Assembly (NCBI RefSeq): GCF_044324785.1 | Contig: NZ_CP172127.1 | Reading direction: 5' to 3' (one strand) | DNA: 64,000 nucleotides | Source of the DNA: Escherichia coli | GTDB lineage: Bacteria > Pseudomonadota > Gammaproteobacteria > Enterobacterales > Enterobacteriaceae | In this document: piece by piece, positions 1 through 42,032 of the stretch | Numbering within the stretch: the first letter of the stretch is position 1 | How the letters are laid out: each line of letters begins with the position of its first letter | Made by a program: the position numbers and the translations under genes | The notes under the pieces: model-generated | Databases searched by the model: none | What the model saw: the letters and a program-made list of their open reading frames with translations, nothing else | What the model was told of the DNA's origin: nothing

Positions 1-689
1 TGGACGCGGGCATTATTGATGCAATGGCCGAAAATATGCGCAGTCGGATGCTTACCATGGGCGATTCGGTGGTGAAAATTTCCCTCGCCTCGCTGGTCGG
101 TTTGCTGACCATAGCCGTCTATCTGGTGCTGGTGCCATTGATGGTCTTCTTCCTGCTGAAAGACAAAGAGCAGATGCTGAACGCCGTTCGTCGGGTGCTA
201 CCGCGTAACCGCGGACTGGCAGGACAGGTGTGGAAGGAGATGAATCAACAAATCACCAACTATATCCGCGGCAAAGTGCTGGAGATGATCGTGGTGGGGA
301 TCGCCACCTGGCTGGGATTCTTACTCTTCGGGCTGAACTATTCGCTGCTGCTGGCGGTGCTGGTCGGCTTCTCGGTACTTATTCCGTACATTGGTGCATT
401 TGTGGTGACCATTCCGGTGGTTGGCGTGGCGCTATTCCAGTTTGGTGCTGGCACGGAATTCTGGAGCTGCTTCGCGGTGTATCTGATCATTCAGGCGCTG
501 GACGGCAACCTGTTAGTACCTGTGTTGTTCTCCGAAGCGGTTAACCTGCATCCGCTGGTCATTATTTTATCAGTAGTGATCTTCGGTGGTTTGTGGGGAT
601 TCTGGGGCGTATTCTTCGCCATTCCATTGGCGACGCTGATCAAAGCCGTGATTCACGCCTGGCCCGATGGGCAAATCGCGCAAGAATAA
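1..689 (+). CDS. perM: Putative permease PerM (YfgO), AI-2E transporter family; 5' end lies upstream of the window (reading frame from position 3)
   Basis: Open frame runs from window edge to TAA at 687-689; hydrophobic multi-helix protein recognised as the C-terminal ~229 aa of E. coli PerM; sits next to focB as in E. coli. Confidence 0.85.
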
Positions 690-693
690 TCTT

Positions 694-727
694 CAGCCCG
701 ACGAACTGTTTCGCCGGGCTGATTTTT
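694..727 (+). terminator. Intrinsic terminator after perM (hairpin plus T-run), lying between convergent perM and focB
   Basis: GC-rich inverted repeat cagcccgacgaa...ttcgccgggctg followed by TTTTT at 723-727. Confidence 0.6.
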
Positions 728-1574
728 AGGGTTCCTGACGTAAATAAATAGCCCGATAACAAATACTCACCAGCACTGCACCGCCGATAATATTACCCAG
801 CATCACCGGGAGCAGATTGGCAGTAATAAAATGGCTGACCGTCAGTGCCGGAAAATGGTCTGCGCTACTGTGCGCCAGTTGCCAGAAGGTGGTAGGGGCG
901 AAATGGCGAATGGCAATGGCGAACGGAATCACAAACAAATTGGCGATACAGTGCTCAAAACCACTGGCGACAAACAGGGTGATGGGCAAAATCATGGCGA
1001 CGATTTTGTCGCATAACGAACGTCCGCAATAACTCATCCACAGCGCCAGGCAAACCATCACATTGCACATAATGCCGAGGCTGACTGATTCAGTAAATGT
1101 ATGATGCATTTTGCCCTCGGCGCAGTGTAAAACCGCGACTCCCCACATCGCGTTTTCACTCATCACCAGCCCGGAAAACCAGATTAACAAACTGAAACAG
1201 GCAATACCTGCCAGATTACCGCAGGCCACCAGAAGTGCATTAATCAGCCATGTTCGCCAGCTAATAACGCCCCGACTTTTTGCCATCACCGTCATTACCG
1301 ACGAGGTGAACAGGCTGGTGCCGCAAACCGCCAGCAAAATAAAGCCGAGTGTAAAGCAAAGGCCTCCCACCAGATGGGTTAATGCCTGTGAAGACGGGGC
1401 ATCGGCGATAACGGTAAGGTAAAAAGTAAATCCGATCGCCATAAACACGCCTGCGGACACCGCCATTAAAAAGACCGACACTTTGCTGCGGGCAATTTTA
1501 TGGGCGGCAATCCGTTCAGCGATTGCCGCTTTTCTGGCGCTCAACTGCAAGTCGAAAGAGAGTTTGTTTCTCAT
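726..1574 (-). CDS. focB: Formate channel FocB (formate/nitrite transporter family)
   Basis: 282 aa ORF, same length as E. coli FocB; membrane protein; immediately downstream of hyfR on the same strand. Confidence 0.93.
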   Translation of the reverse strand: MRNKLSFDLQLSARKAAIAERIAAHKIARSKVSVFLMAVSAGVFMAIGFTFYLTVIADAPSSQALTHLVGGLCFTLGFILLAVCGTSLFTSSVMTVMAKSRGVISWRTWLINALLVACGNLAGIACFSLLIWFSGLVMSENAMWGVAVLHCAEGKMHHTFTESVSLGIMCNVMVCLALWMSYCGRSLCDKIVAMILPITLFVASGFEHCIANLFVIPFAIAIRHFAPTTFWQLAHSSADHFPALTVSHFITANLLPVMLGNIIGGAVLVSICYRAIYLRQEP

Positions 1575-1595
1575 GCATACTCCTGCAAAAGCAGA

Positions 1596-3608
1596 TTACA
1601 ACACCTCGCGAACCGAGATCCCCAGACGCTGCATTCGTGACAGCAGCGTGGTGCGCTTCATCCCTAATCGTGTCGCCGCGCCACGGGGCCCGGCAACAAT
1701 GCCATTGGTTTCTCGCAATACCTGAACAATGCGCTGACGTTCTTCTTCGTCATTCTCTGGCGTCGTCGGGTGCAGCAACTGCGCCATTGAACTGCGAAGC
1801 GCTGAATCTTCATTTAGCGTCGGCAGTAAACGGCTTTGTCGGACATTAAGATGTAAATTCAGACTGTTACCGCGAGTCAGTAGTACCGCTCGCTCAATCA
1901 CGTTTTCCAGCTCGCGCACGTTGCCCGGCCAGTCCCACGACATCAACTGGCGTAGCGCCTCGGTCGGGATGGCGTCAATTGCGCGATTCATATGGCGCGC
2001 CATTTTTTGCGTGAAATGCTTTGCTAAAAGAGGGATATCTTCCGGACGGTCGCGTAGCGGGGGCAATTCCAGTGGGAAGACATTCAGGCGATAAAAGAGA
2101 TCGCTGCGAAACTGGCGATCTTCAACCATTTGCCACAAATCACGGTTGGTGGCGGCAATGACTCTGACATTCACCGGGATCGTTCTACTCCCGCCGAGAC
2201 GCTCAATCTCCCGCTCCTGCAATACGCGCAGCAGTTTAGGCTGAAGTTCTAACGGCAGATCGCCAATTTCATCGAGAAACAACGTGCCGCCATCGGCAAT
2301 TTCAAAACGACCACGATGGGTATTAATCGCACCAGTAAACGCCCCTTTGTCATGACCGAATAACTCACTTTCCAGAAGACTGGCGGGGATGGCAGCGCAG
2401 TTGATTTTGACCAGTGGCTTGTCGCGTCGTGGGCTAAGTTGATGGATCGCTCTGGCGATCACCTCTTTGCCGGTTCCGGTTTCACCACAAATCAACACCG
2501 TACTGTCGCTCTTCGCCACAATATCTACCTGCTGGAGTAGGTCTTCCATTGCCTGGCTTTGATAGATAATGTCACCGACGCCCAGATTCGAAAGGAGCTG
2601 CTCGCTAAGCTGGTGGTTTTCTTGCTGCAAACTTTCCTGCAAATCGGTCATGCTGCGCCAGGCATCGGCATTGCCAACGGCAATAGCGATGCGATCGGCA
2701 ATATGTTGTAGTAGCTGGCAGTTTTCCTCACTAAAGAGAGTGGAAGAGGTATGCGCCAGCAACAATGCACCCGGTGTATGGTTGCCAAAGGTGAGCGGTA
2801 TCAGGAGCGCAGATTCGCAGCCGTTAGATGCAAGTAAGTGTAATAACGGGTCGCGTTGCCAGAGAAACAGATCGTCTGCACGGTGCGTCAAGGTCGGTTG
2901 TCGGGTTTGTAGCGTTTGTGTCAGCAATACACTTTCGCCAGGCATACTGCGTGGCAGACATGCACAATCTGAGGCGGAAAAAACGCTGCACCACAGGCTG
3001 AACTTCTCGTTCTTTCGATGATCGCCCAGTACCATACTGACTGAAGCCAGACCGAAAAAATGATGGATCTCACGAGCGACGTCAGCGATCAGATCGTCGA
3101 GATCAAGATGTGACAATACTGCATTAGTGATATCCACCAGTACCCGATGATGATCGCGATCTTTCTCCAGCAAACGCAGCGCCACCTGCTGTTCTTCATC
3201 ATTGAGCCATGATTGCAGAACCGGGGTGATTATCCGCGCCAGCCAGTTAAACAGTGTGCAATCCTGGGGAGTAAAACGGCTGCCGTGAGTGCGAATAAAG
3301 CGTAGCTCCGCCATTCCACTACTGCCGAGAAGGACGGCGTGGCGCGAATAATCGACCATCTCGCCCTGATACTCTGTTGTTGCCGTCACATCGCTGCCAT
3401 CATCATGGTAGCGGTAATAGAAGTTGCTTTTGAGAACATGCAGTTCAATAAGTTGTACCGGGCTGAACGGCGGCGGCAGCGGGATGAAGGCGCGTAATAA
3501 AGACGCCTTGCCGTGTTTCTGCGCTAACCGCTCCGCGAGCATTCCGTTTACCGCTTCAATTGTTATTCCTTGCGGCGGGGCAAACATCGCCTCGTCTGAC
3601 ATAGCCAT
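1596..3608 (-). CDS. hyfR: Sigma-54-dependent transcriptional activator HyfR (FhlA-like)
   Basis: ORF contains Walker A GETGTGKE and the sigma-54 interaction motif GAFTGA plus a C-terminal HTH; 670 aa from the ATG at 3608 (the ORF track begins one codon earlier at TTG). Confidence 0.93.
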
Positions 3609-3637
3609 CAACAGTCCTTATTAATGAGAAATCCTTC

Positions 3638-4051
3638 TCACGCAATTTTTCTGGCCATCAGATAGATGGCCGGTTCCTGCACAATTTCATCCAACAGATG
3701 AATGAATTGAATGCTACGCGCCTGCCACACAGACGTCGCGTCATCTGCCAGTGGCGCGAATGCCCGGGTCAACAGGGCGGTGTGGCTGGCGTCAATAACA
3801 ATCTCACCAAAGGTCATCACCCCCAGCATCTTACGTCGGGCTTGCTCCTCTTCGACCTGTGCAAGCCAATCATCGTATTCCGTCTGTGGGCAGCGGAAGG
3901 CGACATTCAAACAATCAATCACGCCAACGTGATGACCGATAGCCAACGAGTAATACATTACCTGGGAGCTGTGTTCCGGCATCTCGTCGCTACTGGCGAC
4001 AAACTTTTTTCGCAGCGTCCAGAAAACAATTTCCCCGCACGCCTCAGCCAT
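3638..4051 (-). CDS. hyfJ: Hydrogenase-4 component HyfJ (HycH-like maturation/assembly protein)
   Basis: 137 aa ORF matching E. coli HyfJ; overlaps the hyfI stop by 8 nt. Confidence 0.9.
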
Positions 4052-4802
4052 GTAACCCCCGGAGAACGCGAAAGAGTTGCTGAACGATACTATTGAGACG
4101 TGGATCGTCGGCTTCGCGCAACCAGGTGTTAACCCGATTTCCTGTAGGATCGTCGCTTAAATGGCGCAGGAGCCGATCGCAAATTTCTCGCCCCTGACGA
4201 TAGCCCGCCAGCCGCCTCGCTTCTCGCTCAATGGCGATACGCTGTGATGGCGGGATCTGCGGCCATAGCGGTTGCATGGTCACCCCGGTGGGATCGCGAT
4301 AATCCACAGCGTGAATCTTCTGTTGCAGCAAACCGAGCGCCACGGCGAAACCGTGAATGGTGGCGGCCGGTGTTGGCGGGCAGCCGGGGATCCAAACATC
4401 AATGGGGACAATGGTGTCGCTGCCGCCCCAGACGCTGTAAAGATCGTGGAAAATACCGCCGCCGACACCGCACGCGCCGTAGGAAATACAGATTTTATGA
4501 TCGGGGGCAGACTCATATGCCCGAAGTGCAGGCATACGCATCGCCCGGGTGACTGCGCCAGTAAATAACAAAATATCGGCGTGACGCGGTGATGAAACAA
4601 CCTTAATGCCAAAACGTTCTGCGTCGAATACGGGTGTGATGGCGGCAAAAATTTCGATTTCGCAGGCGTTGCAGCCGCCGCAATCGACGCGATAAACGTA
4701 GGCCGAGCGACGGATATCCTGTAACAAATGCTGCTTCATCTTTTGCGTTTGCTCGTCCAGCGTGATGGGCTGGCTGACATATTGCGTAAGCACTGGACTC
4801 AT
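4044..4802 (-). CDS. hyfI: Hydrogenase-4 small subunit HyfI (NuoB/HycG-like)
   Basis: 252 aa; Cys-rich N-terminal cluster-binding region ([10 protein letters not shown]...GACGVGGG...GCPP) typical of NuoB-type subunits. Confidence 0.93.
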
Positions 4803-5344
4803 AGCTGCTCCTTAGCCACCAGCGGTACATCTGTATCGTCGTTGATCAGCGTCGCGCGTTGTTTGCACTCCGGGCAGACGCTCGCTTGCGCCCATAACAT
4901 TTCGCGGTTTTGTGGCGCATTTTGTTGCTGTGCCAACAATTCAGCAGCCAGTGCGACGGTTTTTTGCGGGGCAAACGGGCGTTCGCAACGGCTGCAACGT
5001 TGTAGATGAAACGTCGCGCGGGTATAGAGATCGGCTTTATTGGTGACGGTCAGTTCAAAGTTATTGGTAAGCTGAATGGCTCTGGTCGGGCACACTTCTT
5101 CACAACGTCCGCAGTAAATACAACGCCCCAGATAGAGCTGCCAGGTGCGCGTATTTTGCTGGTCGTCGGTCTGGATAGTCAGCGCGTTTGCCGGACAAGC
5201 ACAGGCGCAGGCACCGCAGGCAATACATTGGCTGGGCATCAGGTCCGGTTTCCCGCGAAAGCCTGGGCTGACCTCCAGTGGCGCGAAGGGATATTTCACC
5301 GTCGCGGTTCCGGCGCGCATAATAGTTTTCAGTAACTTCAGCAT
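4799..5344 (-). CDS. hyfH: Hydrogenase-4 ferredoxin-type subunit HyfH (2x[4Fe-4S])
   Basis: 181 aa; two CxxCxxCxxxCP motifs ([24 protein letters not shown]). Confidence 0.93.
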
Positions 5345-5353
5345 CTTCTGTCC

Positions 5354-7069
5354 TTACTTCAGCGGCGAACGGTTACGATCAATGCCGTAGCGTTCGATCT
5401 CTTTATACGGCACGGTTTTTGACTGGCGCTTGCGCACATCAACCAGCGTCACACGGTCGGTACAGGAGTAGCAGGGATCAAGGCTACCGATAATTAGCGG
5501 TGCGTCAGAAACGGTATTGCCGCGCAGCATGTAACGCAGCACTGGCCAGTTGGCGTAGGTGGCGGCACGACAGCGCCAGCGGAACAATTTTTGGTTATCA
5601 CCGAGCATGCTCCAGTGCACGTCTTCACCACGTGGCGCTTCAACAAAGCCCAGCGCGAATGCGTGAGGTTTATAGCTAAAGCCTTCGGTCAGCAGTGGGG
5701 TATCTGGCATGTTGTCGAGGGCAAATTCCAGCATTGCCAGCGAATCAAACGTCTCTTTGACACGGACCATCACGCGGGAGAAGACATCGCCGCCGGTAAA
5801 GGTAAACAGCGTTTTTGGAATATTGCCGTAGTCGGCGTAGGGGTGAGCAAAGCGCAAATCACGGGCAAAACCACTGCCGCGGATCAGCGGCCCTACGGGG
5901 CTATAATCACGGGCGATTTGTCGGTCGAGAATGCCAATGCCCTGAGTGCGTTGTTCCATATTCGGCGTGGCAAGCAGCATCTCTACCAGCTCCGACACGT
6001 CGGCGCGCATCTCGCGCACTAGTTTCAGCGTTTGCAGACGTTGCTCTTTGAGAATATCGCGGCGAACACCACCAATCAGATTCAGACCGTAGGTTTTACG
6101 CGACCCGGTCAGCAATTCCGCCATCGTCATCGACTTTTCCCGCACGCGGAAAAATTGCATAAAGCCGGTATCAAAACCAACAAAATGGCAGGAGAGGCCA
6201 AGGTTGAGCAAATGACTATGCAGCCGTTCGACTTCCAGCAGAATCGAGCGAATAGTATGCGCTCGTTGCGGCACTTCAATCCCCAGTGCATTTTCAACCG
6301 AGTTGGTATAGGCCACACTGTGGGCAAAACCGCAAATCCCACACACGCGGTCGGATAAGAAGGTCACTTCGTTGTAGCCCATCCGCGTTTCTGCCAGTTT
6401 CTCCATGCCGCGATGGACATAAAACAGGCGGTAATCAGCATCGACAATTTGCTCGCCATCCACAAACAAGCGGAAGTGACCTGGTTCATCGGAGGTGATA
6501 TGCAGCGGGCCGACAGGGATCACCCGCGCATCGCTGTTGCCCTCGTTGATAAACGGATACGTTTCGGTATCAGTCGTCGGTTCTGGGCGCAGTCGATAAT
6601 CCATCGCGTCTTTGCGCAGCGGATGCATATCTTCCGGCCAGTCATCGGGCAACACCAGCCGACGCTGATCCGGCAGGCCAACCGGAATCAGCCCGTACAT
6701 ATCGCGAATTTCTCGCTCGCCCCAGACCGCGGCAGGGACGCGCGGTGTGACTGACGGAAACTCCCGACTGTCGGCATCGACCAGTGCCTTCACCACGATC
6801 CAGCATTTTTCGGCCCCTTCCATAGAAAGGGCATAATAAACCGCGTAATGACCGTTAAGTGTCCGCTCGTCGTTGCCAAACAGGACTGGAAGCCAGCCAT
6901 CATGTTGATAATAAAGATAATGCACAACGTCAGGCAGCAGATTGATTTTCACCGTAATGGTGACCTGTTCAGGCGTTTGTCGCTCTTCATCCAGCACCGC
7001 GCCGGGGAACTGCGTTTTCAGGGCGGCGAGAATCGCTTCGCCACGATTTGACGATGAATTAACGTTCAC
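5354..7069 (-). CDS. hyfG: Hydrogenase-4 large [NiFe] subunit HyfG (HycE/NuoCD-like); start codon uncertain
   Basis: ORF track gives 586 aa from the ATG at 7114; a GTG at 7067-7069 preceded by GGAG (7 nt spacer) is the better-supported start; C-terminal ...DPCYSCTDR is a NiFe-ligand motif. Confidence 0.88.
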
Positions 7070-8639
7070 TGTGTTTCTCCGAAACAGATGCGGTGCCTGA
7101 AGGCAAAAAATCATGCCAGGTGCTACGTTGTGCAGGCAGGTCGTGCGTCCCTGAGAGGACTATAGTGGAAGCGCTTGCCAGGATCCTGATGACAGGTTGT
7201 GGAATATGCGTTCCCATCGCCAGCATCATGACCAGCAGAATCACCATTGGCGAGGTGGTCAACCAGCCAAGTTCACCCCGGTTAACGGCCTGCGGCGGTT
7301 TCGCCATTAACACCCGCGCAGCCATCCGTACCAGGCCCGCCAGCACCAGCGTTAACAGCAATAACAGCAGGACGATAAGCAGCAGATGATTACGCGCCAG
7401 TCCGGCGGTAACGGTCATAAATTCGCTAAGAAAAATGTTGAAGGGCGGCATCCCGGCCAGCGCCAGCGCACCGCCGCCAAACAACACGGCGGTAAATGGC
7501 ATGATTTTGAGCATCCCACAGACGACGTTGAGATCGCGCGTGCCGTACTTGAGCAGTACATTGCCGGAACCGCAGAACAACAGCGTTTTTGCCAGACTGT
7601 GGTTTAAGGTGTGCAGCAGCGCGGCAAAAATTCCCAGCGGCCCGCCAATGCCTAACGCCACCGCGACCAGTCCCATGTTCTCCACGCTGGAGTACGCCAG
7701 CAGACGCTTAATGTCCCGCTGTACCAGAATGAAAAATGCCGCCACGGCAACCGACAACATGCCGAAGATGAGCAACAACCGGTTGGGGAAATCGCTGCCG
7801 ATGGCCTGGCAAATAATGATGTAATAGCGAATAAGCACCAACAGCGCGCAGTTCAGCAATACGGCGGAGAGCAGGGCGCTGACCGGACTCGGCGCTTCAC
7901 TGTGAGCATCTGGCAGCCAGGCATGCATGGGGAATAGCCCGGTTTTAGTGCCAAAGCCAATTAGCACAAACACAAAGGCCAACAGCATTAATGTTGGGTC
8001 AAGCAAGGACGATTGCTTAAGAACCTCGCTCCAGAATATCGCCATTTCTGCCTGCGGCATAACGCTGGCGGCGTTGGCGTATACCAGCACGGTACCGAAC
8101 AGACCAAAAGCGACACCAACAGTACAAATAATGATGTACTTCCATGCAGCTTCCAGCGATGAACGCTGACCGTAAATGCCTACCAGAAACGCCGAGCTTA
8201 AGGTGGTGGCTTCGATTGCCGCCCACATCACAATCAGGTTATTGCTGGTAACAACCAGCAGCATGGTGAACAAAAACAGATGGAAGAAACCGTAGTAATC
8301 GCACAGCGTAACGGGTGAAAGCTCGCCGTGTGCCACTTCATGACGCATGTAGCCAATCGAGTAAACACCGGTGAGAAAGCCAATCACACCAAGAATGGCG
8401 AGGAACAAACCGCCCAGACCATCAATGTGAAGCCACAGTCCCGCAGCGAATATTTCTCCCGCATCAGCGGCAGTTTGGACCACCCACAGTGCCAGAATCA
8501 GCAGCAGTGTGATCCCTAAGCCATGTAGTACTGTCACCGTACGAGTCGCAGAGTGTCCCCGTTTCCGGCAGGCAAAACAGAGCAGCGAAAAAAGCAGCGG
8601 CGTGAGCAGGAGTAAAGCGAACATCACAAAATAACTCAT
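7059..8639 (-). CDS. hyfF: Hydrogenase-4 membrane subunit HyfF (NuoN/antiporter-like)
   Basis: 526 aa polytopic membrane ORF matching E. coli HyfF. Confidence 0.92.
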
Positions 8640-8643
8640 CTCA

Positions 8644-9294
8644 TTATCCCTTCAGCGCGGTCAAGTTGTTCACGTCCAGCGTGCCGTGGGTACGCCATAT
8701 TTTTCTTGCCAGTAACACCATCACAATGACGGCGAAGATGGCGTCGGTAGCGATACCAATTTCCACCAGTTCCGGTGCACGCCAGGCTAGAAGCGCCAGC
8801 ACCAGATGGGAGCCGTTTTCCATCAGGCAGTAACCAAAGATTTGCCGCAGGATATTGCGCTGGCTGACAATGCACAGCAGGCCAAGCAGAAAATGACCTA
8901 ACGCCACCGCCAGCGCCGGTTTCAGCCCGGTAGCCATCGGTAGCTTCACGGGCTGAACGACAAATGTGCAAAGCAGGACAATTAACGCCGCGAGCAGTGT
9001 CATCATTGCCGGACCGAATAACGCTTTTTCCGGGATGTTCTGGGGAATATTTCGTGCAGCGTAAGTCATGATTAACGGTACCAGCAGCACTTTGGTGATA
9101 AAGGCGCTGGCGGACCAGATCAGCAGTTGCTCTGCGGCGAATAGGCACGAGAGGGTGGCGAAAATAGACACCAGCACCAGTGACTGGCAGGCGTAAAATC
9201 CGCATGACAGGCGATAGCTTTTGACGCTAATCACAAACAGCGATGTCAGCATCATCAGTCCCGCCAGATTATTTACGATCGTAGAACCGGTCAT
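8644..9294 (-). CDS. hyfE: Hydrogenase-4 membrane subunit HyfE
   Basis: 216 aa hydrophobic ORF matching E. coli HyfE. Confidence 0.92.
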
Positions 9295-9305
9295 TCATCA
9301 TCTCC

Positions 9306-10745
9306 TTACTGCAACCAGGTCGCGGCGATTACGCTGGAAATCAGCGACATCACAATCAGTACAATCAACACCAGGCGCATTGATCCTGGCAGCGGTGCGG
9401 CATCGGCGACGGCCTCGCTCGGTTTGCCAGGCACGACGCGACCAAACCAGCGAATAAACCAGGCGAAACTGGCGACCGATTCAATCATCAGCAGAATCAT
9501 GGCGGGCAGCAGGATCCAGTACTCCACTGACAACGCAAAACCGGCAGCAAACAGCGGGAATTTACTGAAGAAGCCGTTGAACGGCGGCACGCCGGTAATT
9601 GCCAGCGCTGCCACGCAGAAACCCACGCCAGGCAACGGCAGGGTGTGCAATACGCCACGCAGACGCGGCAACAAGCGCGTGCCGCAGCTGTAACTCAGCG
9701 CACCTGCTACAAGGAAAAACAGGCTTTTAGCGAACGCGTGGTTGACGATGTAGGCGATGCTACCCTCCAGCGCCAGCCGCGAGCCGAAGATGGAGAGCGA
9801 CAAGCCGAAAAACATCCAGCCAAGTTGAGTGATGGTCGACCAGGCCAGCAACCGCTTCATATCCTGCTGTGGCAAATACATCAGGAAGCCATAAAGAATG
9901 GTGACCAGTGCCATAACCATGCCAACGCCGCCAATCACATGCGGGATATTGCCGCCGTCGATAATGGCACGGGCAAAAATGTAAACGCCCACTTTCACCA
10001 TCGATGCGGCGTGGAGATAGGCGCTGATCGGTGTTGGCGCTTCCATTGCATCCGGTAGCCACGCTTGCATCGGTAGCTGGGCCGATTTCCCCCACGCGGC
10101 AAACAGGATGCCACCATAAACCAGATAGCGTGCGTCGCCGTGTAACTCGCTCATCGCGCTGAGCGCAAACGTTCCGGTCTGCAAAAACAGCGTGGCGGCG
10201 GCAAGATACAACCCCAACGAACCGATATGAGTGATAAGCAACGCTTTTAGTGCTGAACGCTGCGCTTTATCGCTCTGGTAATAACTGATCAACGCCCAGG
10301 AGCAGCCGCCCGTAATTTCAAAAAACAACAACTGACCGAGCAGCGTCGAGGAGAGTACCAGTCCCGCCATCGCGCCGATAAAAACCAGCAAAAATGCGTA
10401 ATAACGATTCGTGCCGTTATGCGGGTGTTCGCGATTTTTATCCGTCAGATAACCCGTGGAGTAGATCGTGACCAGCAAACCGAGGAACACCACCACAAAC
10501 AGAATCAGCGTACTCACGCGATCAATGACCAGGCCAAACAACGCCACATCCCCCACGTTGACCAACGTCAACGTGACGGCAACTTTATCGGCCTGATAAA
10601 ACGCGGAGATCAGCGACAACATGCACAGCGTGGTCAGCGCGGCGAACAAAATCCCCCATTCGGCGGCCCGACGTTGTGGCGAAAACGAAACGACCAGTGC
10701 GCCGATAAAAGGCAGCAATAACGTCGTCAGAGCAAGATTTTCCAT
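9306..10745 (-). CDS. hyfD: Hydrogenase-4 membrane subunit HyfD (NuoM/antiporter-like)
   Basis: 479 aa polytopic ORF matching E. coli HyfD. Confidence 0.92.
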   Translation of the reverse strand: MENLALTTLLLPFIGALVVSFSPQRRAAEWGILFAALTTLCMLSLISAFYQADKVAVTLTLVNVGDVALFGLVIDRVSTLILFVVVFLGLLVTIYSTGYLTDKNREHPHNGTNRYYAFLLVFIGAMAGLVLSSTLLGQLLFFEITGGCSWALISYYQSDKAQRSALKALLITHIGSLGLYLAAATLFLQTGTFALSAMSELHGDARYLVYGGILFAAWGKSAQLPMQAWLPDAMEAPTPISAYLHAASMVKVGVYIFARAIIDGGNIPHVIGGVGMVMALVTILYGFLMYLPQQDMKRLLAWSTITQLGWMFFGLSLSIFGSRLALEGSIAYIVNHAFAKSLFFLVAGALSYSCGTRLLPRLRGVLHTLPLPGVGFCVAALAITGVPPFNGFFSKFPLFAAGFALSVEYWILLPAMILLMIESVASFAWFIRWFGRVVPGKPSEAVADAAPLPGSMRLVLIVLIVMSLISSVIAATWLQ

Positions 10746-10761
10746 ATTCCGTCAGTGCTCC

Positions 10762-11709
10762 TTACAGACCGGTTAACCAGAAGACCCAGGCAAGCGCAGC
10801 AAGGCTGAAGCCAAGCCAGGTCACATGGTGAATGAGTAAAAAACGCCCGCGTGCCAGCGTGTTTTCTGCGATTGAGGCCAGAACAAAAATCAGCAAAACC
10901 TTGAGCAGCGTAACGATAAGTGAAGTCAGCAGGCAGGTGAGAGAAAGCTCTTGCGCGCGCCCAAAGGGCAAAAACAGGGCCACAAACAGTGATGCCATCA
11001 CGACCTGTTTCAGCCCCAGCCCCAACTTCGCCAGCGCCAGCCCGGCACCGGAATATTCGGTCAGCGGGCCTTCCTGTAATTCCTGTTCTGCTTCAGCAAC
11101 ATCAAAGGGAATTTTTCCCATCTCAATGAAGCAGGCAAAACCACAGGCCAGTAACGCCAGTACGGTGGTTAGCGGCGAGTTCCAGCCCGTCGCCAGCGTC
11201 TTGCTGATCATCTCGATATGCGTGGAATCCGCTATCAGCGCCAATACCAGCAGTGAGAGAAGGAGCATTGGTTCGACCAGAATGCCGAGCGTCAACTCGC
11301 GACTGGCACCGACTCCCGCAAACGGGCTTCCGGTATCCAGCCCGGAAAGAGCAAAGAAAAAACGAAACAGGGCAAGAAGATAGATAAGGGTGATCAGATC
11401 GCCGCCGCCCGCAAAAGGGGAAACAGTAATAAATAGTGGTAGGGCCATCGCCAGCACCAGCATGCTGCTGATTAATACCCACGGCATCAGGCGGAACATC
11501 AGACCTGAAGATGTCGGCGCAACTTCCTGGCGTTTAAACAGTTTGTGGATATCGCGATAATCCTGCCAGATCCCCGGTCCGCGACGGGAGTGCATACGCG
11601 CGCGTATCTGCCGGGAAATCCCCGTAAAAAGCGGGGTTAGCACCAGCAGAATCACGGCCTGTGCTAACGCAAAAATGATCAGATATCCGTCGCAAAGAGT
11701 TTGTCTCAT
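10762..11709 (-). CDS. hyfC: Hydrogenase-4 membrane subunit HyfC (NuoH/HycD-like)
   Basis: ORF track 322 aa; the second ATG (MRQTLCDGY...) gives 315 aa as in E. coli HyfC. Confidence 0.9.
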   Translation of the reverse strand: MRQTLCDGYLIIFALAQAVILLVLTPLFTGISRQIRARMHSRRGPGIWQDYRDIHKLFKRQEVAPTSSGLMFRLMPWVLISSMLVLAMALPLFITVSPFAGGGDLITLIYLLALFRFFFALSGLDTGSPFAGVGASRELTLGILVEPMLLLSLLVLALIADSTHIEMISKTLATGWNSPLTTVLALLACGFACFIEMGKIPFDVAEAEQELQEGPLTEYSGAGLALAKLGLGLKQVVMASLFVALFLPFGRAQELSLTCLLTSLIVTLLKVLLIFVLASIAENTLARGRFLLIHHVTWLGFSLAALAWVFWLTGL

Positions 11710-11719
11710 GGTGATTTCC

Positions 11720-13738
11720 TTAGACGGCAATAGCGATTAGCAGCACAACCAGTGCGGCGATCACATACAGGCAATAGAGACGAAAGTCGCCGCTTTGCAG
11801 ATGCTGTATTTCTTTGGCCAGCCGTTGGGTGGCGCTCACGATGGGGCGGATCACCCGCTCATCCCAGAAGGGTTCTGTGCTCTGAGCCCTGGCGGTGATG
11901 TGCGCAAGACCTTTATTTAGCTTCAGCGTAGGGTCGAGCTGTTGTCGTAGACGAAATAGCGCAGAAAAGACCACACGCAGCGGCTGCATCACGCCATTGC
12001 CTGACGGGGCCATCGCATTATCCCAGCCGTAGCCGCATGCCCAGGCATCTCCTGTGCGACGAAACGCTGCGCGGCGCGAACGACGCCACAGCCAGTAAAG
12101 GCCAGGCAGCAAAGGCATCGCCAGTAGTAACAGCAACAGTAATGAGGGAGTGACCCGTGTATGAAACGTGCCGGGTACAAGTGCTATTCCGCTGGCGACA
12201 GTGACGGGAGGGGTATTGGTAAACGCATGGGCAATGTGCATTATCTTCGGTGCCAGCCAACTGGCACTAAGCGCAATGAATACGCAGAGTGCCGCGAGCA
12301 GTAGCATGGCGACGATCATCGTATTTGGCACTTCCTGTGCCTCTTCAGCGTGTGTACTGCGCGGCGCTCCACAGAAAGTAATACCGTACATTTTGGCGAA
12401 GCACATTACTGCCAGCCCACCAGTGACTGCCAGCATCACCATAGCAATAGGACCCGCAAGTTGTAGCGCTACGGCTTCCACACGACTTAGTGAGAACAGC
12501 GACTGCCAGGTGTACCATTCGCTGATAAAACCATTCAGCGGAGGAATGGCTGATATCGCGAGGCAACCAATCAGGCATGCTGCGGCTGTCCACGGCATCC
12601 GTTTTGCCAGTGCCCCCATTTTTTCCATGTCGTGGGTATGCAAACGCGAAATAATCGCACCCGCGCCGAGAAACAGCAGCCCTTTGAACAGTGCATGGTT
12701 GAGCAAATGAAACAGCGCGCCGAGCAGTCCAACCACGGTGAGCAGCGGGTCGTGCAGTGACAGACCGACCATCGCCACACCGACCGCCAGCAAAATAATG
12801 CCGACGTTTTCGACGGTACTCCAGGCCAGCAGCCGTTTGATATCCTGTTCCGCCAGCGCATACAGCACTCCCAGGAGCGCGGAGATTGCGCCGATCGCCA
12901 TCACCAGAATGCCCCACCACAGCGGCAAACCCGTTTGCGCCAGCAGGTCCATCGCTACTTTCAGGATGCCGAAAATACCGATTTTGACCATTACGCCAGA
13001 CATCAACGCCGAAGCGTGCGATGGTGCGGCAGGGTGAGCGCGTGGCAACCAGCTGTGCAACGGCATCATCCCGGCTTTCGCGCCAAAACCGAAGAAGGCC
13101 AGCAGGAACACCGCCGACGCCAGCCCCGGAGAAAGTGAAAGCGTGCGGAAACTGGCAAAATCGAGGCTGCCGCTTTCGCGCCACATCAGCAAGAAGGCGA
13201 TCATAATCAGCACCGATCCGGCGTGGGCGATAAAAAAGTAGAGCATGCCAGCGTTGATTGACGTTTTATCCTGCCTGGCAATGACCAGAAACCAGGAAGA
13301 CAGCGACATCATTTCAAACAGCACGATGAACCAAAAAGCGTTATCCATCACCAGCAGGGCAACCATCGATGCGATGAAAAGATTCATAAAGAAGCCCATT
13401 GCCGCCGCGCCTTTGCCCTCGTATTCGCGCATATAAGTCAATGAATAGAGCGAACAAACCCCCACCAGCAAGGAGATAACCAACACCATAAATGCCGAGA
13501 GGCTATCCATTCGCAGGGTTAAATCGGCAAAATCAAAAGGCGTGGCAAAACGGGCGACTAAAGTTACGCCTGCATGTAATTGCGTAATTCCGCTGATGAT
13601 GCCAATCACGCCGCCCACCAGCGATGTGATGCCGGAAAGCTTAATAGTCAGTCTGTCCAGACCGAGTAAAAACAGCGAAGCCAGACTGGCAAACAGATAG
13701 AGGATCAGCGACCAGGTTAATAATTGCAGGGCATCCAT
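11720..13738 (-). CDS. hyfB: Hydrogenase-4 membrane subunit HyfB (NuoL/HycC-like)
   Basis: 672 aa polytopic ORF matching E. coli HyfB. Confidence 0.92.
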   Translation of the reverse strand: MDALQLLTWSLILYLFASLASLFLLGLDRLTIKLSGITSLVGGVIGIISGITQLHAGVTLVARFATPFDFADLTLRMDSLSAFMVLVISLLVGVCSLYSLTYMREYEGKGAAAMGFFMNLFIASMVALLVMDNAFWFIVLFEMMSLSSWFLVIARQDKTSINAGMLYFFIAHAGSVLIMIAFLLMWRESGSLDFASFRTLSLSPGLASAVFLLAFFGFGAKAGMMPLHSWLPRAHPAAPSHASALMSGVMVKIGIFGILKVAMDLLAQTGLPLWWGILVMAIGAISALLGVLYALAEQDIKRLLAWSTVENVGIILLAVGVAMVGLSLHDPLLTVVGLLGALFHLLNHALFKGLLFLGAGAIISRLHTHDMEKMGALAKRMPWTAAACLIGCLAISAIPPLNGFISEWYTWQSLFSLSRVEAVALQLAGPIAMVMLAVTGGLAVMCFAKMYGITFCGAPRSTHAEEAQEVPNTMIVAMLLLAALCVFIALSASWLAPKIMHIAHAFTNTPPVTVASGIALVPGTFHTRVTPSLLLLLLLAMPLLPGLYWLWRRSRRAAFRRTGDAWACGYGWDNAMAPSGNGVMQPLRVVFSALFRLRQQLDPTLKLNKGLAHITARAQSTEPFWDERVIRPIVSATQRLAKEIQHLQSGDFRLYCLYVIAALVVLLIAIAV

Positions 13739-14355
13739 TAGCGTTGCTCCTGAGTGAGGGAAAGGGGATCCTCCCCGCCATTGGCAAACCAGCTTGCGGC
13801 AAGGCGCTGTTTTTCTTTCATCTGGCGTTGCAGGCTATCGTCGGTGATCAGCCGTAACGCCTTATTCGGGCAAGCGCGAACGCATGCCGGACCTTCTGGC
13901 AAGAAATCACACAGGTCGCATTTCACCGCGACGGTCTGGACACCCGGTTCCCAGCGCAGCAACGCATGTTGGGTCGACACGTTTACTTCTCCGTCTTTGA
14001 GTGAGCCCTCAGCCTGAAAAACATATTGCGCAGGGGCATTCACCGGACGGCTTCCTGAAGCGCTGATTGCGCCAAATGGGCAGACCACGGCACAAAGCTT
14101 GCAGCCAATACAGAGGCTTTCGTTGAGTTGGATCGCATCATCCCTCTGGGAGATGGCATTGACCGGGCAGACCTGCAGGCAAGGGGCTTCCTCACAGTGA
14201 TGACACACGACAGGGGCAGTGAGTGTTGACGTCTTCGCCAGGGCCAGGCGCGGGTGTTGCTGTAAACCTTGCGTTTTATGCACGTCCGAACAGGCAGCGA
14301 GACAGGTATTACATCCTGTACACCACAGTGGTTCGGCCACCACAAAGCGGTTCAT
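13738..14355 (-). CDS. hyfA: Hydrogenase-4 ferredoxin-type subunit HyfA (multiple [4Fe-4S])
   Basis: Several CxxCxxCxxxC motifs; the ATG at 14353-14355 with AGGAG 8 nt upstream gives 205 aa; the ORF-track ATG at 14392 lies upstream of the predicted transcription start. Confidence 0.9.
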   Translation of the reverse strand: MNRFVVAEPLWCTGCNTCLAACSDVHKTQGLQQHPRLALAKTSTLTAPVVCHHCEEAPCLQVCPVNAISQRDDAIQLNESLCIGCKLCAVVCPFGAISASGSRPVNAPAQYVFQAEGSLKDGEVNVSTQHALLRWEPGVQTVAVKCDLCDFLPEGPACVRACPNKALRLITDDSLQRQMKEKQRLAASWFANGGEDPLSLTQEQR

Positions 14356-14396
14356 GTCGGCTCCTTGAAAATGATATGAAACATTGCATTTCATAT

Positions 14397-14412
14397 TGCA
14401 TAAAGGATGCCA
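14397..14412 (-). promoter_or_regulatory. Sigma-54 (-24/-12) promoter of the hyf operon
   Basis: Minus-strand sequence TGGCATcctttaTGCA fits TGGCAC-N5-TTGCA with GG and GC at the correct spacing, about 40 bp upstream of the hyfA ATG; hyfR in the same operon encodes a sigma-54 activator. Confidence 0.7.
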
Positions 14413-14538
14413 GTCTGATTAATTTAATATATTCAATAAGTTATGAATTAACTGTATTCTGAACGGTACAAAAATGATGGTCATTAACGTTCAGCAAAAA
14501 ATGAATTCGACACCCGTGTCGCAGGGGAAAGCGAGAAT

Positions 14539-14552
14539 GTGATCTTGATCAC
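14539..14552. promoter_or_regulatory. Inverted repeat GTGATC-tt-GATCAC about 140 bp upstream of the hyf sigma-54 promoter; candidate enhancer or CRP-like site
   Basis: Perfect 6-bp arms; also reads TGTGA-N6-TCACg; position is typical of an enhancer-binding-protein site. Confidence 0.3.
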
Positions 14553-14607
14553 GAGAAGTGAGGTGTGCTGACCGCAAGCGCAGCCAGCACGGAATGGAGC
14601 AAAGTAA

Positions 14608-15078
14608 TCAGGCGTGTTCTTTCAGCCAGTTCAGCACAACGTCGTGGTGATTGCTGGTTTTGAAATCGTCAAAGACATGTTCGATTTTGCCATCAGCGTC
14701 AATCAGGAAGCTGATGCGATGAATACCATCGTAGGTTTTGCCCATGAAGGACTTTTCACCCCAGACGCCGAATTGTTCGCACACCTGGTGGTCCTCATCA
14801 GACAGGAGCGTAAAGTTAAGCAGCTCTTTTTCCGCAAAACGGGAGAGTTTTTCGGGTTTATCGGTGCTGATACCCAGCACATCAACGCCCGCTTTTTTCA
14901 ACTCATCCATGTTATCGCGTAAGCCGCAGGCTTGTACGGTACAGCCGGGGGTCATGGCTTTCGGGTAGAAATAAACCAGAACACGCTGTCCCTGGAAGTC
15001 GGTCAAATTAACTTGTTCTCCGTCTTGATCCGGCAAGCTAAATTTCGGTGCGATATCACCGGCTTTCAGTGGATTCAT
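14608..15078 (-). CDS. bcp: Thiol peroxidase Bcp (peroxiredoxin)
   Basis: 156 aa; peroxidatic Cys in the TPGCT context; its start overlaps the gcvR stop by 1 nt. Confidence 0.95.
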   Translation of the reverse strand: MNPLKAGDIAPKFSLPDQDGEQVNLTDFQGQRVLVYFYPKAMTPGCTVQACGLRDNMDELKKAGVDVLGISTDKPEKLSRFAEKELLNFTLLSDEDHQVCEQFGVWGEKSFMGKTYDGIHRISFLIDADGKIEHVFDDFKTSNHHDVVLNWLKEHA

Positions 15079-15650
15079 TACTTAACTCCATCCTGTTCAT
15101 CATGTTGGGAATAATTGACGACGTTAATACTGCCTTGTGCATTGAGTTCTGTACATAGGGCTTTGAACGCTTGCTCAATATTTGCTGCGTCCGCAGATGC
15201 GGGGCTGTGGGCGGTTATCTGAATATGCAACTGCGCAGCCCGTTCATTTTCAGCAGGTTGCGTGCGCGACACCAGCTCCGCAATGTTCATATGATGCGCG
15301 TCGAAAAGTGCTGTGAAGCGTTCAATTAAATGCGGGGAGTCTGCCACATCGACCTGAACCCAGACAGATGCTGGCATTGGCGGACGCGGACGCGCCGTCG
15401 TGCGCTTCATCACGATTAAAAGATCCAGCTCGGCACCTTTCAACGGTAACGTTGATTCAATCAGAGTAATGGCATTCCATGAACCGGAAAGCAGCATGAT
15501 AAACGTGAACTCTTCTCCCAGCATCGCCAGGCGACTGTCTTCAATATTACAGCCGCAACTACTGACATGACGGGTGATGGTGTTCACAATTCCAGGGCGA
15601 TCGGCACCCAACGCAGTGATCACCAGATAATGTTGCGATGACAGTGTCAA
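15078..15650 (-). CDS. gcvR: Glycine cleavage system transcriptional repressor GcvR (ACT domains)
   Basis: ORF track 212 aa from a TTG; a second in-frame TTG gives the 190 aa product (MTLSSQHYLVITALGADRPG...) known for E. coli GcvR. Confidence 0.88.
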   Translation of the reverse strand: MTLSSQHYLVITALGADRPGIVNTITRHVSSCGCNIEDSRLAMLGEEFTFIMLLSGSWNAITLIESTLPLKGAELDLLIVMKRTTARPRPPMPASVWVQVDVADSPHLIERFTALFDAHHMNIAELVSRTQPAENERAAQLHIQITAHSPASADAANIEQAFKALCTELNAQGSINVVNYSQHDEQDGVK

Positions 15651-15795
15651 ACTGGTTATTCCTTTAAGGGGTGAGTTGTTCTTAAGGAAAGCATAAAAAA
15701 AACATGCATACAACAATCAGAACGGTTCTGTCTGCTTGCTTTTAATGCCATACCAAACGTACCATTGAGACACTTGTTTGCACAGAGGATGGCCC

Positions 15796-16674
15796 ATGTT
15801 CACGGGAAGTATTGTCGCGATTGTTACTCCGATGGATGAAAAAGGTAATGTCTGTCGGGCTAGCTTGAAAAAACTGATTGATTATCATGTCGCCAGCGGT
15901 ACTTCGGCGATCGTTTCTGTTGGCACCACTGGCGAGTCCGCTACCTTAAATCATGACGAACATGCTGATGTGGTGATGATGACGCTGGAGCTGGCTGACG
16001 GGCGCATTCCGGTGATTGCCGGGACCGGCGCTAACGCTACTGCGGAAGCCATTAGCCTGACGCAGCGCTTCAATGACAGTGGTATCGTCGGCTGCCTGAC
16101 GGTAACCCCTTACTACAATCGTCCGTCGCAAGAAGGTTTGTATCAGCATTTCAAAGCCATCGCTGAGCATACTGACCTGCCGCAAATTCTGTATAATGTG
16201 CCGTCCCGTACTGGCTGCGATCTGCTCCCGGAAACGGTGGGCCGTCTGGCGAAAGTAAAAAATATTATCGGAATCAAAGAGGCAACAGGGAACTTAACGC
16301 GTGTAAACCAGATCAAAGAGCTGGTTTCAGATGATTTTGTTCTGCTGAGCGGCGATGATGCGAGCGCGCTGGACTTCATGCAATTAGGCGGTCATGGGGT
16401 TATTTCCGTTACGGCTAACGTCGCAGCGCGTGATATGGCCCAGATGTGCAAACTGGCAGCAGAAGGGCATTTTGCCGAGGCACGCGTTATTAATCAGCGT
16501 CTGATGCCATTACACAACAAACTATTTGTCGAACCCAATCCAATCCCGGTGAAATGGGCATGTAAGGAACTGGGTCTTGTGGCGACCGATACGCTGCGCC
16601 TGCCAATGACACCAATCACCGACAGTGGTCGTGAGACGGTCAGAGCGGCGCTTAAGCATGCCGGTTTGCTGTAA
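15796..16674 (+). CDS. dapA: 4-hydroxy-tetrahydrodipicolinate synthase DapA
   Basis: 292 aa from ATG 15796 ([17 protein letters not shown]...); the ORF track adds 6 upstream codons. Confidence 0.96.
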
Positions 16675-40556: not shown

Positions 40557-41232
40557 TATTCGTGAAGCACACGCGCGCGGCGAACAGGCAATGTCCGTGG
40601 TTCTGCGCGCCAGCATTATTACCCCGGAAGCCCGTGAAGTGGCGGATCTGTTGGGTTTTACCATCACTGAATGTGATGAATCGACTGCGGTAACGACGTC
40701 TGTTCCCGCCAGCGTGCCAGCCGATAAAACCGAAAGCCAGCGCATCCGCGAAACCATCATCGCCCAGCTGCCGGAAGGCCAGTTTACCGAAAGCCTGGTC
40801 GCGCAGCTGATGGAAAAAGTGATGAAGGAAAAACAGTCACTGGAGCAGGGTGCAATGCAGCCGAGTTTCAAATCGGTTACCGGCAAAGGCGGCATCAAAG
40901 TTATTGATGGCAGCAGCGTCAAGTTTGGTCGTTTTGACGGCGCACAGCCACACTGCGTCGGATTAACGGATCTGGTCACCGGAGACGACGGCAGCAGCAT
41001 GGCCGCTGGTTTTATGCAGTGGGAGAACGCCTTCTTCCCGTGGACCCTGAACTATGACGAAATCGACATGGTACTGGAAGGGGAACTGCACGTTCGCCAC
41101 GAAGGCGAAACCATGATCGCCAAAGCAGGCGACGTGATGTTTATCCCGAAAGGCTCCAGCATCGAATTTGGTACGACATCCAGCGTGAAATTCCTGTATG
41201 TCGCCTGGCCGGCTAACTGGCAATCCCTATGA
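40531..41232 (+). CDS. eutQ: Ethanolamine-utilisation protein EutQ (cupin domain)
   Basis: 233 aa, GTG start; overlaps eutP by 26 nt. Confidence 0.92.
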   Translation: MKKLITANDIREAHARGEQAMSVVLRASIITPEAREVADLLGFTITECDESTAVTTSVPASVPADKTESQRIRETIIAQLPEGQFTESLVAQLMEKVMKEKQSLEQGAMQPSFKSVTGKGGIKVIDGSSVKFGRFDGAQPHCVGLTDLVTGDDGSSMAAGFMQWENAFFPWTLNYDEIDMVLEGELHVRHEGETMIAKAGDVMFIPKGSSIEFGTTSSVKFLYVAWPANWQSL

Positions 41233-42032
41233 AAGATTTCATCACCGAAGCATGGCTAAGAGCGAACCATACGCTCAGCGAAGGCGCAGAGATCCATCTC
41301 CCTGCGGACAGTCGCCTGACGCCCTCTGCCCGGGAGTTGCTGGAAAGCCGCCATCTGCGCATCAAGTTTATTGACGAGCAGGGCCGCCTGTTTGTTGACG
41401 ATGAACAGCAGCAGCCGCAGCCCGTTCATGGGCTGACCAGTAGCGATGAACATCCGCAGGCGTGCTGCGAACTGTGCCGCCAGCCGGTGGCGAAAAAGCC
41501 GGATACGCTGACTCACCTGTCGGCGGAAAAAATGGTCGCCAAAAGCGATCCGCGCCTGGGTTTTCGCGCTGTTCTCGACAGCACCATTGCGCTGGCAGTG
41601 TGGCTGCAAATTGAACTGGCAGAACCGTGGCAGCCATGGCTGGCGGACATCCGCTCGCGTCTTGGCAACATTATGCGCGCCGATGCGCTGGGGGAACCGC
41701 TGGCCTGCCAGGCGATTGTCGGGCTTTCTGACGAAGATCTGCATCGGCTTTCTCACCAGCCGCTGCGCTATCTTGGTCACGATCATCTGGTGCCGGAAGC
41801 CAGCCACGGGCGCGATGCGGCGTTGCTCAATCTGCTACGCACCAAAGTGCGGGAAACCGAAACCGTGGCGGCGCAGGTCTTTATCACCCGCAGCTTTGAA
41901 GTATTACGCCCGGACATCTTGCAGGCGCTGAACCGCCTTTCCAGCACGGTCTACGTGATGATGATCCTGAGCGTAGCGAAACAACCGCTAACGGTGAAGC
42001 AGATCCAACAACGACTGGGGGAAACGCAATGA
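41229..42032 (+). CDS. eutT: Corrinoid adenosyltransferase EutT
   Basis: 267 aa; ATGA overlap with eutQ. Confidence 0.93.

Follow-up and report, generated by a model that had tools for sequence, protein, structure and literature searches.

Hydrogenase-4 (Hyd-4), which forms the hydrogenase component of formate hydrogenlyase-2 (FHL-2), is held to stand nearer than any other extant system to the ancestor of respiratory complex I, and FHL-2 is a candidate energy-conserving formate hydrogenlyase. The operon that encodes it, hyf, has been called silent or cryptic since 1997 in Escherichia coli, genetically the best-equipped organism, and work on the enzyme moved to Pectobacterium and Trabulsiella after attempts to activate it in K-12 had failed without explanation. 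Why does a complete operon give no demonstrable enzyme in this species? We take up this question with the copy of hyf found in a 64,000-nucleotide stretch of E. coli DNA (contig NZ_CP172127.1, assembly GCF_044324785.1; hereafter, the window). Positions 693-14553 of the window, on the minus strand, very probably hold the known chromosomal hyfABCDEFGHIJR-focB operon, complete, with its own sigma-54 promoter and a full-length hyfG, and may specify an active enzyme. The system is already known and not new. What the comparisons add is that, as judged from sequence, the window carries the undamaged, ancestral-type form of the operon, and that the copy of the K-12 reference, together with those of at least 73% of hyf-bearing E. 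coli, is damaged.

The original prediction, made from the letters of the window, had placed at 726-14412 an intact hyf locus of twelve open reading frames (ORFs), tightly packed or overlapping, with a -24/-12 promoter upstream of hyfA and a HyfR that retains its GAFTGA and Walker motifs; it had presented the locus as a known system and proposed an alignment to reference hyf loci. Each of these points was upheld. Gene-by-gene translation against K-12 MG1655 reveals that all twelve frames are open, free of internal stops and provided with the same start codons as in K-12; all lie on the minus strand, which the prediction had left unspecified. The junctions consist of overlaps of 1, 11, 4 and 8 nt or of gaps of 4-29 nt. 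HyfR has Walker A (GETGTGKE) at residue 375, GAFTGA at 422 and Walker B (LFLDE) at 443, and the 16-base promoter core is the same as a K-12 site bound by sigma-54 in chromatin immunoprecipitation sequencing (ChIP-seq). That the locus is the known hyf is borne out by its synteny with K-12, to which it is collinear with ~98% nucleotide identity, and by the expected Pfam domains and cofactor motifs; gene order and flanks (bcp and yfgO) are those of the RefSeq-annotated strain N3 and of K-12 MG1655. We use the word intact here to mean open frames and preserved motifs. The alignment uncovered no inactivating change in the window. Instead, it brought to light an in-frame deletion of 16 codons in hyfG of K-12. 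Indeed, the lengths of the products equal those of K-12 in 11 of the 12 cases, the exception being HyfG, which has 571 amino acids (aa) in the window and 555 in K-12, and the length found in the window matches that of every homologue outside E. coli.

The 16-codon segment of hyfG

The stretch that is kept in the window and deleted in K-12 comprises 48 nt and covers codons 386-401 of hyfG (5914..5867, minus strand). In hyfG of MG1655 (8987-10654 of the K-12 record compared) it is gone exactly between the 10-nt direct repeats GCCCGTGATT, located in the window at 5914..5905 and 5866..5857. HyfG aligns with HycE of formate hydrogenlyase-1 (FHL-1; PDB 7z0s) with E = 2e-291 and without gaps in the catalytic half, the only gap between the two proteins being the engineered His-tag insertion of HycE near residue 84. 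The 16-residue segment is ungapped also in P. furiosus MbhL, in T. thermophilus Nqo4 and in the mitochondrial ND7/49-kDa subunit. We then compared HyfG with 80 close homologues (73-92% identity) recovered from species-representative genomes: all of them contain the segment, and 11 of its 16 positions are at least 90% conserved. All of 120 distant family representatives contain it as well, with G393 present in every one and R397 in 119. A family alignment of 64 sequences has no more than 13 invariant columns, among them G393 and R397 of this segment. Since the segment is kept in HycE, MbhL, Nqo4, ND7/49-kDa and all homologues, the 571-codon hyfG is the ancestral form of the gene.

The paper describing the FHL-1 structure proposes a proton pathway, made of HycE Arg395, His284 and Glu437, that leads to the canopy residues Arg478 and Asp529, and reports that this pathway is conserved in formate hydrogenlyases, membrane-bound hydrogenases, soluble hydrogenases and complex I. 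A constant offset of +2 carries these residues from HycE to HyfG, where they become H286, R397, E439, R480 and D531. All five are found in the window, and the R397 position, the equivalent of HycE Arg395, is missing from the K-12 protein. In addition, the haplotype with the deletion carries the substitution T321I, whereas all 80 homologues have Thr there. In AlphaFold2 predictions the two alleles adopt a common global fold, with a predicted template modelling score (pTM) of 0.89 for each; around the K-12 junction two short helices disappear and the local confidence score (pLDDT) is 75 instead of 97, which is a weak indication of a disturbed structure.

That the K-12-type deletion disables Hyd-4 is thus well supported by conservation and by the published structure, and it is plausible that a window-like copy could give an active enzyme. 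A more far-reaching interpretation is tentative, a little short of an even chance: the 571-codon hyfG would be the working form, and the 555-codon K-12 allele a natural loss-of-function allele, generated by slippage at the 10-nt repeats and deprived of the Arg395 equivalent. Along with the lesions of other lineages described below, this allele would be the reason why laboratory strains, after a quarter-century of study, have yielded no demonstrably active Hyd-4.

The published attempts can be looked at in this light. Finney et al. (2020) used 15 K-12 strains in which Phyc or PT5 controlled hyf and the C-terminus of HyfG was either its own or swapped for that of HycE. No H2 was obtained, and the failure was put down to "additional, unknown, biosynthetic problems"; the internal deletion of hyfG is not mentioned. 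A 2019 paper on Pectobacterium blamed the difficulty on poor expression, a missing accessory gene and the lack of agreed test conditions. Our full-text literature search, which left subscription journals largely outside its reach, returned no paper on the hyfG deletion or on hyf pseudogenes.

Damage to hyf across the species

The state of the operon in the species was surveyed in 5,426 complete E. coli genomes using allele-specific probes, in which no stretch shared with non-carriers exceeds 27 consecutive bases, under the 28-base word of megablast. The lesions to be probed were catalogued by aligning 20 sampled hyf loci. This part of hyfG was found in 4,294 genomes. The 48 nt are kept in 2,179 genomes, and the deletion junction is matched in 2,113, that is, in about half of the hyf-bearing genomes; the carriers include K-12, BL21, TOP10, MC1061 and O111:H8. 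The remaining ~1,130 genomes (about 21%) are without hyf and have bcp and yfgO within a 1,280-bp span, Nissle 1917 and NC101 being examples. The hyf-less genomes were compared at the equivalents of window positions 1-725 (yfgO side) and 14608-15100 (bcp side).

The catalogue contains many lesions besides the hyfG deletion. In hyfB we found a -1 frameshift at codon 197, which alone is present in 1,264 genomes, and a +1 frameshift at codon 269, seen in a sublineage of O157:H7. hyfC is interrupted by a -1 frameshift at codon 97 (in BL21) or by a stop at codon 253, and hyfF by stops at codons 210 and 123; hyfI has a -1 frameshift at codon 116. The hotspot gene is hyfD, with -1 frameshifts at codons 30 and 145 and deletions of 216 and 208 nt. 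The window equivalents of the lesion sites are 13148, 12934, 11420, 10657, 10370, 10312, 9988, 8273, 8012 and 4455. Finally, hyfH of BL21 and 2015C-3121 has suffered an in-frame loss of 6 nt within the first CxxCxxCxxxC motif (codon 44; equivalent to window 5209-5214), leaving a shorter, non-canonical spacing; the window keeps this motif in full. The lesions are often common to several of the sampled genomes.

Any of ten lesions outside hyfG occurs in 2,336 genomes. Counting also the hyfG deletion, the number rises to 3,098, and with the O157 lesion added to the same set (the deletion or any of eleven others) it reaches 3,130. Genomes that are undamaged and have a full-length hyfG are therefore at most 4,294 - 3,130 = 1,164, corresponding to 21% of all genomes and 27% of the hyf-bearing ones; in other words, at least 73% of the latter have a deletion, a frameshift or a stop. 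The window is free of every other hyf lesion catalogued in the species. In an evenly spaced sample of the identity ranking, about 8 of 60 genomes (13%) fall in a clade that is at least 98.5% identical to the window and free of indels, and all eight inspected genomes of this clade are fully open. Strains of the window type include N3, H8, CH4796, M12, 405 and CLSC36. The window thus appears to represent a minority, undamaged state, and the reference does not. The original prediction had valued an undamaged copy as useful material; given the deletion in K-12 and the lesions in most E. coli, the window copy is rarer and more useful than had been assumed.

Two further observations came from the survey. 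The same small hyf lesions accompany the full-length as well as the deleted hyfG, a pattern that implies either recombination inside the operon or repeated mutation. Further lesions seem enriched on the deletion background (64% vs 47%); this difference is suggestive only, as the genomes are not independent samples, and we do not use it.

Constraint on the operon and competing explanations

To judge how well the open copy has been preserved, we calculated the ratio of nonsynonymous to synonymous substitution rates (dN/dS). For hyf as a whole it is 0.117 between the window and K-12 and 0.109 between the window and N3, the corresponding figure for 41 flanking genes being 0.037. Constraint is tight at hyfD (0.015) and hyfG (0.044). 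Values span 0.09-0.17 for pairs within the intact clade and 0.13-0.24 for lesion-bearing pairs; with medians of ~0.13 and ~0.16, respectively, and overlapping ranges, the idea of a higher dN/dS in lesion-bearing lineages was not convincing and was discarded. K-12 departs from conserved residues at HyfA P108H, HyfB L120I, HyfF A328E, T344I, V410I and E456D, HyfG T321I and FocB T54S. Of these, the four HyfF residues (A328, T344, V410 and E456) are kept in the window. At HyfB position 186 the Trp of the window agrees with the homologues (Trp or Tyr), in contrast to the Gly of K-12.

Several points weigh against the view that the window copy works and the K-12 copy is broken. The constraint on hyf is relaxed everywhere, though far from absent, and open copies may be weakly selected. 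The window itself has substitutions at six positions where at least 90% of homologues agree, namely HyfB V448A and E573D, HyfC G161D, HyfG D408A, HyfJ L56Q and FocB L172V. HyfC G161D is present in every sampled window-like genome, at a position where 72 of 73 homologues have Gly; HyfG D408A is unique to the window, Asp being found in 73 of 80 homologues; and at HyfJ 56 Leu is found in 13 of 14. An asymmetry of point mutations was accordingly dropped as an argument, the conserved positions changed being 8-9 in K-12 vs 6 in the window. AlphaFold2 does not discriminate between the alleles, an overall fold being still predicted for K-12 HyfG. The essential partners fdhF, hycI and hyp lie outside the window. 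Moreover, a 2025 review accepts FHL-2 activity in stationary-phase E. coli on the basis of Mirzoyan et al. (2017); if that report is correct, the short allele is not dead.

These points give room to two other explanations. The difference in the length of hyfG could be a neutral polymorphism, the 555-aa and the 571-aa proteins working equally well or equally poorly. Being in frame and present in 2,113 genomes from many sources, the deletion is evidently not strongly deleterious to the cell; 762 of the genomes that carry it have no other catalogued lesion, the pTM of 0.89 is shared by both alleles, and hyf mutants in K-12 backgrounds are reported to show physiological effects. However, a dispensable enzyme could be lost without harm to the cell, so that this harmlessness is silent on the function of the enzyme. 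Not one of 200 homologues, ranging from 30% to 92% identity, tolerates the loss of a segment that holds two of the 13 invariant columns of the family as well as the Arg395 equivalent of the proton pathway; the haplotype has in addition lost a Thr shared by 80 of 80 homologues, and Hyd-4 of K-12 stayed inactive despite the engineering of its promoter or of its C-terminus. We therefore regard neutrality as unlikely.

A heavier competitor is that the operon is open but functionally cryptic, i.e., that hyf is being lost across E. coli and that this copy has simply not yet been frameshifted, missense changes or missing partners already blocking its activity. The absence of hyf from ~21% of complete genomes, the damage in at least 73% of the others, and a dN/dS about three times that of the neighbouring genes even inside the intact clade would all fit such a decay, as would the G161D change in HyfC of the window and its clade, the D408A change in HyfG of the window alone, and the lack of a protease gene in the operon. 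On the other hand, dN/dS remains far below 1, so purifying selection persists, most clearly at hyfD and hyfG, and the catalytic, Fe-S and ATPase motifs are all intact. Eight of eight sampled window-like genomes are open over 13.6 kb, which is unlikely under neutral decay given the hits accumulated elsewhere. As for the protease, HycI is able to process a Hyd-4 large subunit, and HyfC G161 falls in a loop that is variable when more distant homologues are aligned. On balance, crypticity is a real but rather doubtful possibility.

If the far-reaching interpretation holds, namely that the 571-codon hyfG is the working form, the deletion in K-12 hyfG may explain why Hyd-4 of laboratory strains was never made to work, and a window-like locus, or K-12 repaired with the 48 nt, would provide E. 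coli itself with an active FHL-2 that possibly translocates ions. Together, the hyfG deletion and the finding that only about one fifth of genomes are undamaged open the puzzle to a simple experiment. In addition, the survey documents the parallel loss of a large metabolic operon in many lineages of a single species, and it cautions against treating the K-12 sequence as wild type.

Genes, upstream region and relatives of the operon

The genes of the operon are described here in the order of transcription, all on the minus strand. hyfA (13738-14355; 205 aa, 7 differences vs K-12) encodes a ferredoxin-like protein with a Fer4 match, whose 16 Cys, forming four 4Fe-4S motifs, are all kept. Its start is at 14355, where it is preceded by an AAGGAG Shine-Dalgarno sequence and shared with K-12, and not at the ATG of the longer ORF at 14394. 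The membrane subunits follow. HyfB (11720-13738; 672 aa, NuoL/M/N type), HyfD (9306-10745; 479 aa, a single difference vs K-12) and HyfF (7059-8639; 526 aa) are antiporter-like and match Proton_antipo_M. HyfC (10762-11709; 315 aa) is NuoH/HycD-like, with a NADHdh match and E = 1e-91 against HycD (PDB 7z0s), and HyfE (8644-9294; 216 aa) resembles NuoK in its C-terminal half (Oxidored_q2 at residues 127-216). hyfG (5354-7069; 571 aa) has a GTG start, overlaps hyfF by 11 nt as in K-12, and encodes the [NiFe] large subunit of the NuoC-NuoD fusion type, with matches to Complex1_30kDa, Complex1_49kDa and NiFeSe_Hases. The ligand motifs are an RxCGxCxxxH type at residue 241 and DPCYSCTDR at 531, followed by a C-terminal peptide of 32 aa whose cleavage by a protease is predicted.

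The catalytic core is completed by hyfH (4799-5344; 181 aa), a 2x[4Fe-4S] subunit of the NuoI/HycF type with a Fer4 match and CxxCxxCxxxC motifs at residues 40 and 75, and by hyfI (4044-4802; 252 aa), the small subunit of the NuoB/HycG type (Oxidored_q6). The Cys positions of HyfA, HyfH and HyfI are all equal to those of K-12. hyfJ (3638-4051; 137 aa) encodes an assembly protein of the HycH type (Pfam HycH, E = 1e-56). HyfR (1596-3608; 670 aa, 7 differences vs K-12) is a sigma-54 enhancer-binding activator in which GAF, Sigma54_activat (E = 5e-75) and AAA_lid_14 are recognized; its last 60 aa, the DNA-binding end, are the same as in K-12. The last gene, focB (726-1574; 282 aa), encodes a channel of the formate/nitrite transporter family (Form_Nir_trans at residues 20-273 of 282, E = 6e-64). 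The FocB translation contains the FocA-type motifs LFT and GFEHCIAN, which probably hold the counterparts of FocA Thr91 and His209. A terminator-like hairpin (693-722, minus strand) begins 4 nt past the focB stop and is common to the convergent yfgO; its 13-bp stem includes 8 G-C pairs, its sequence is the same in K-12, and it was the strongest terminator-like site of the region in a scan for sigma-70 promoters and terminators. An Rfam scan of window positions 1-15200 gave no match.

The sigma-54 element TGGCATCCTTTATGCA occupies 14412..14397 of the minus strand and precedes the hyfA ATG by 42 nt, with GG at 14411-14410 and GC at 14399-14398 (GG-N10-GC); the transcript is predicted to start near 14386, about 12 nt downstream of 14398. 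One may ask whether this match is due to chance, transcription starting from another promoter. The degenerate sigma-54 pattern is indeed found in the window at chance frequency (50 matches with at most 2 mismatches vs 49 expected), and the TGGCATCCTTTATGCA core departs at two positions from the TGGCAC-N5-TTGCA consensus. Rarity of the motif was therefore dropped as support, and the case for the promoter was drawn from K-12 binding data and from conservation across genera. The 16-mer is identical to the K-12 sigma-54 ChIP-seq site OS23, listed upstream of hyfA by Bonocora et al. (2015), and the hyfA upstream region gives the strongest RpoN holoenzyme peak of K-12 in genomic systematic evolution of ligands by exponential enrichment (gSELEX), so that the site is bound both in vivo and in vitro. 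In Klebsiella indica, Citrobacter, Kosakonia, Phytobacter and Trabulsiella, GG-N10-GC stands ~58 nt ahead of the start codon of hyfA, and in Proteus ~81 nt ahead; the element remains invariant across six genera while the flanking sequence diverges. The scan showed no sigma-70-like promoter upstream of hyfA. On all these grounds a chance match is highly improbable. The 252-nt spacer between bcp and hyfA has 8 differences vs K-12, including an A to C at -25 that brings the window nearer to the consensus.

Further upstream on the minus strand, three blocks stand out as invariant across the six genera. The longest invariant stretch of the upstream alignment is the conserved block TGACCATCATTTTTG at 14483..14469 (TGACCATCA.TTTTG), in which TGACCATCAYTTTTG is invariant across six genera. 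The inverted repeat CGACACGGGTGTCG (14521..14508), which can form a hairpin, is a candidate site for the activators FhlA or HyfR. It lies ~100 nt upstream of the -24 element, where enhancer sites usually stand, and all 8 aligned upstream regions, from six genera, share its CGACA..TG.CG pattern (CGACAC..TGYCG at 14521..14508). The palindrome cGTGATCAAGATCACA (14553..14538) matches TGTGA-N6-TCACA with one mismatch and is a candidate CRP site by consensus only; Citrobacter homologues have a perfect CRP-like TGTGACTAATATCACA at the position aligned with it. The blocks at 14521..14508 and 14553..14538 may be assigned to FhlA/HyfR and to CRP, respectively.

Going by what is established for the family and for K-12, the operon would work as follows. 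Sigma-54 RNA polymerase would sit at -24/-12 until an enhancer-binding ATPase, acting from upstream sites, opens the promoter; this opener could be FhlA with formate, or HyfR, the product of the same operon. HyfA would serve as the electron-input ferredoxin, HyfB, C, D, E and F as the complex-I-like membrane arm, HyfG and HyfI as the [NiFe] catalytic pair and HyfH as their Fe-S partner, with HyfJ acting in assembly, HyfR as activator and FocB as formate channel. Together with formate dehydrogenase H, the Hyp proteins and the HycI protease, which are encoded elsewhere, the enzyme would oxidize formate and reduce protons to H2, a reaction possibly coupled to ion translocation.

The 15-kb hyf region finds a match in 5,425 of the 5,426 complete E. 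coli genomes. The best is strain N3 with 99.3% identity, the remaining ones are all below 99%, and the whole 64-kb window is collinear with N3; therefore, the source appears to be an ordinary E. coli lineage that is not closely sampled. The identity to N3 is 99.33% across the first 16.5 kb (1-16500) and 98.40% across the remainder (16501-64000), which suggests mosaic ancestry, with recombination near hyf. Outside hyf, tmcA (19696-21699, plus strand) ends four codons earlier than in N3 owing to a CAA to TAA change at 21697, a trivial C-terminal truncation that does not make it a pseudogene. The eut operon is open in the window, and N3 has an internal stop in eutT (window 41229-42032) and a frameshift in eutR (53512-54564); eutC (51400-52284) is one codon shorter than in N3.

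Among known systems, hyf of K-12 MG1655 (b2481-b2492) shares with the window the 12 genes, their order and junctions, the bcp/yfgO flanks, the sigma-54 core and identical hyfJ-hyfR and hyfR-focB spacers. It differs in HyfG, which lacks residues 386-401 (window numbering) and carries T321I. FHL-1 (hyc, hydrogenase-3; PDB 7Z0S/7Z0T) resembles hyf in that HycE has the [NiFe] ligand motifs and, at the +2 offset, the canopy and proton-pathway residues; HycD corresponds to HyfC (E = 1e-91), and HyfJ belongs to the HycH family. Unlike FHL-1, hyf encodes three additional membrane subunits, HyfD, E and F, of antiporter-like or NuoK-like type, and its own activator and formate channel, whereas it is without the HycI protease gene and HycA. 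Complex I offers subunits homologous one for one to those of hyf (NuoB, CD, H, I, K, L, M and N), and its Nqo4, ND7 and 49-kDa subunits keep the VGPxxRxSG segment that K-12 HyfG has lost; in contrast to hyf, it has no [NiFe] site but a quinone pocket, and a different electron-input module.

The FHL-2 loci of Pectobacterium atrosepticum and Trabulsiella guamensis, which are reported to be active and to encode a HycI-like protease, HyfK, share with the window the hyfA-J order, a HyfG of 80-85% identity in which the 16-residue segment is complete, and GG-N10-GC upstream of hyfA. They differ from it in that hyfR is divergent or distant, focB is not at that position and the flanks are others. More generally, the hyfA-J core is common to Trabulsiella, Pectobacterium and Proteus, but the hyfR-focB tail and the flanks are not. 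A scan of contigs from species-representative genomes found no HyfG more than 92% identical to that of the window; therefore, the representatives of E. coli and of its sister species are without hyf. The closest loci with the same 12 genes between bcp and yfgO are those of Citrobacter sp., Enterobacter sp. Bisph1, Kosakonia and Phytobacter, whose HyfG is 87-92% identical. This shared arrangement suggests that hyf is old at the bcp-yfgO site and has probably been lost repeatedly, rather than recently acquired.

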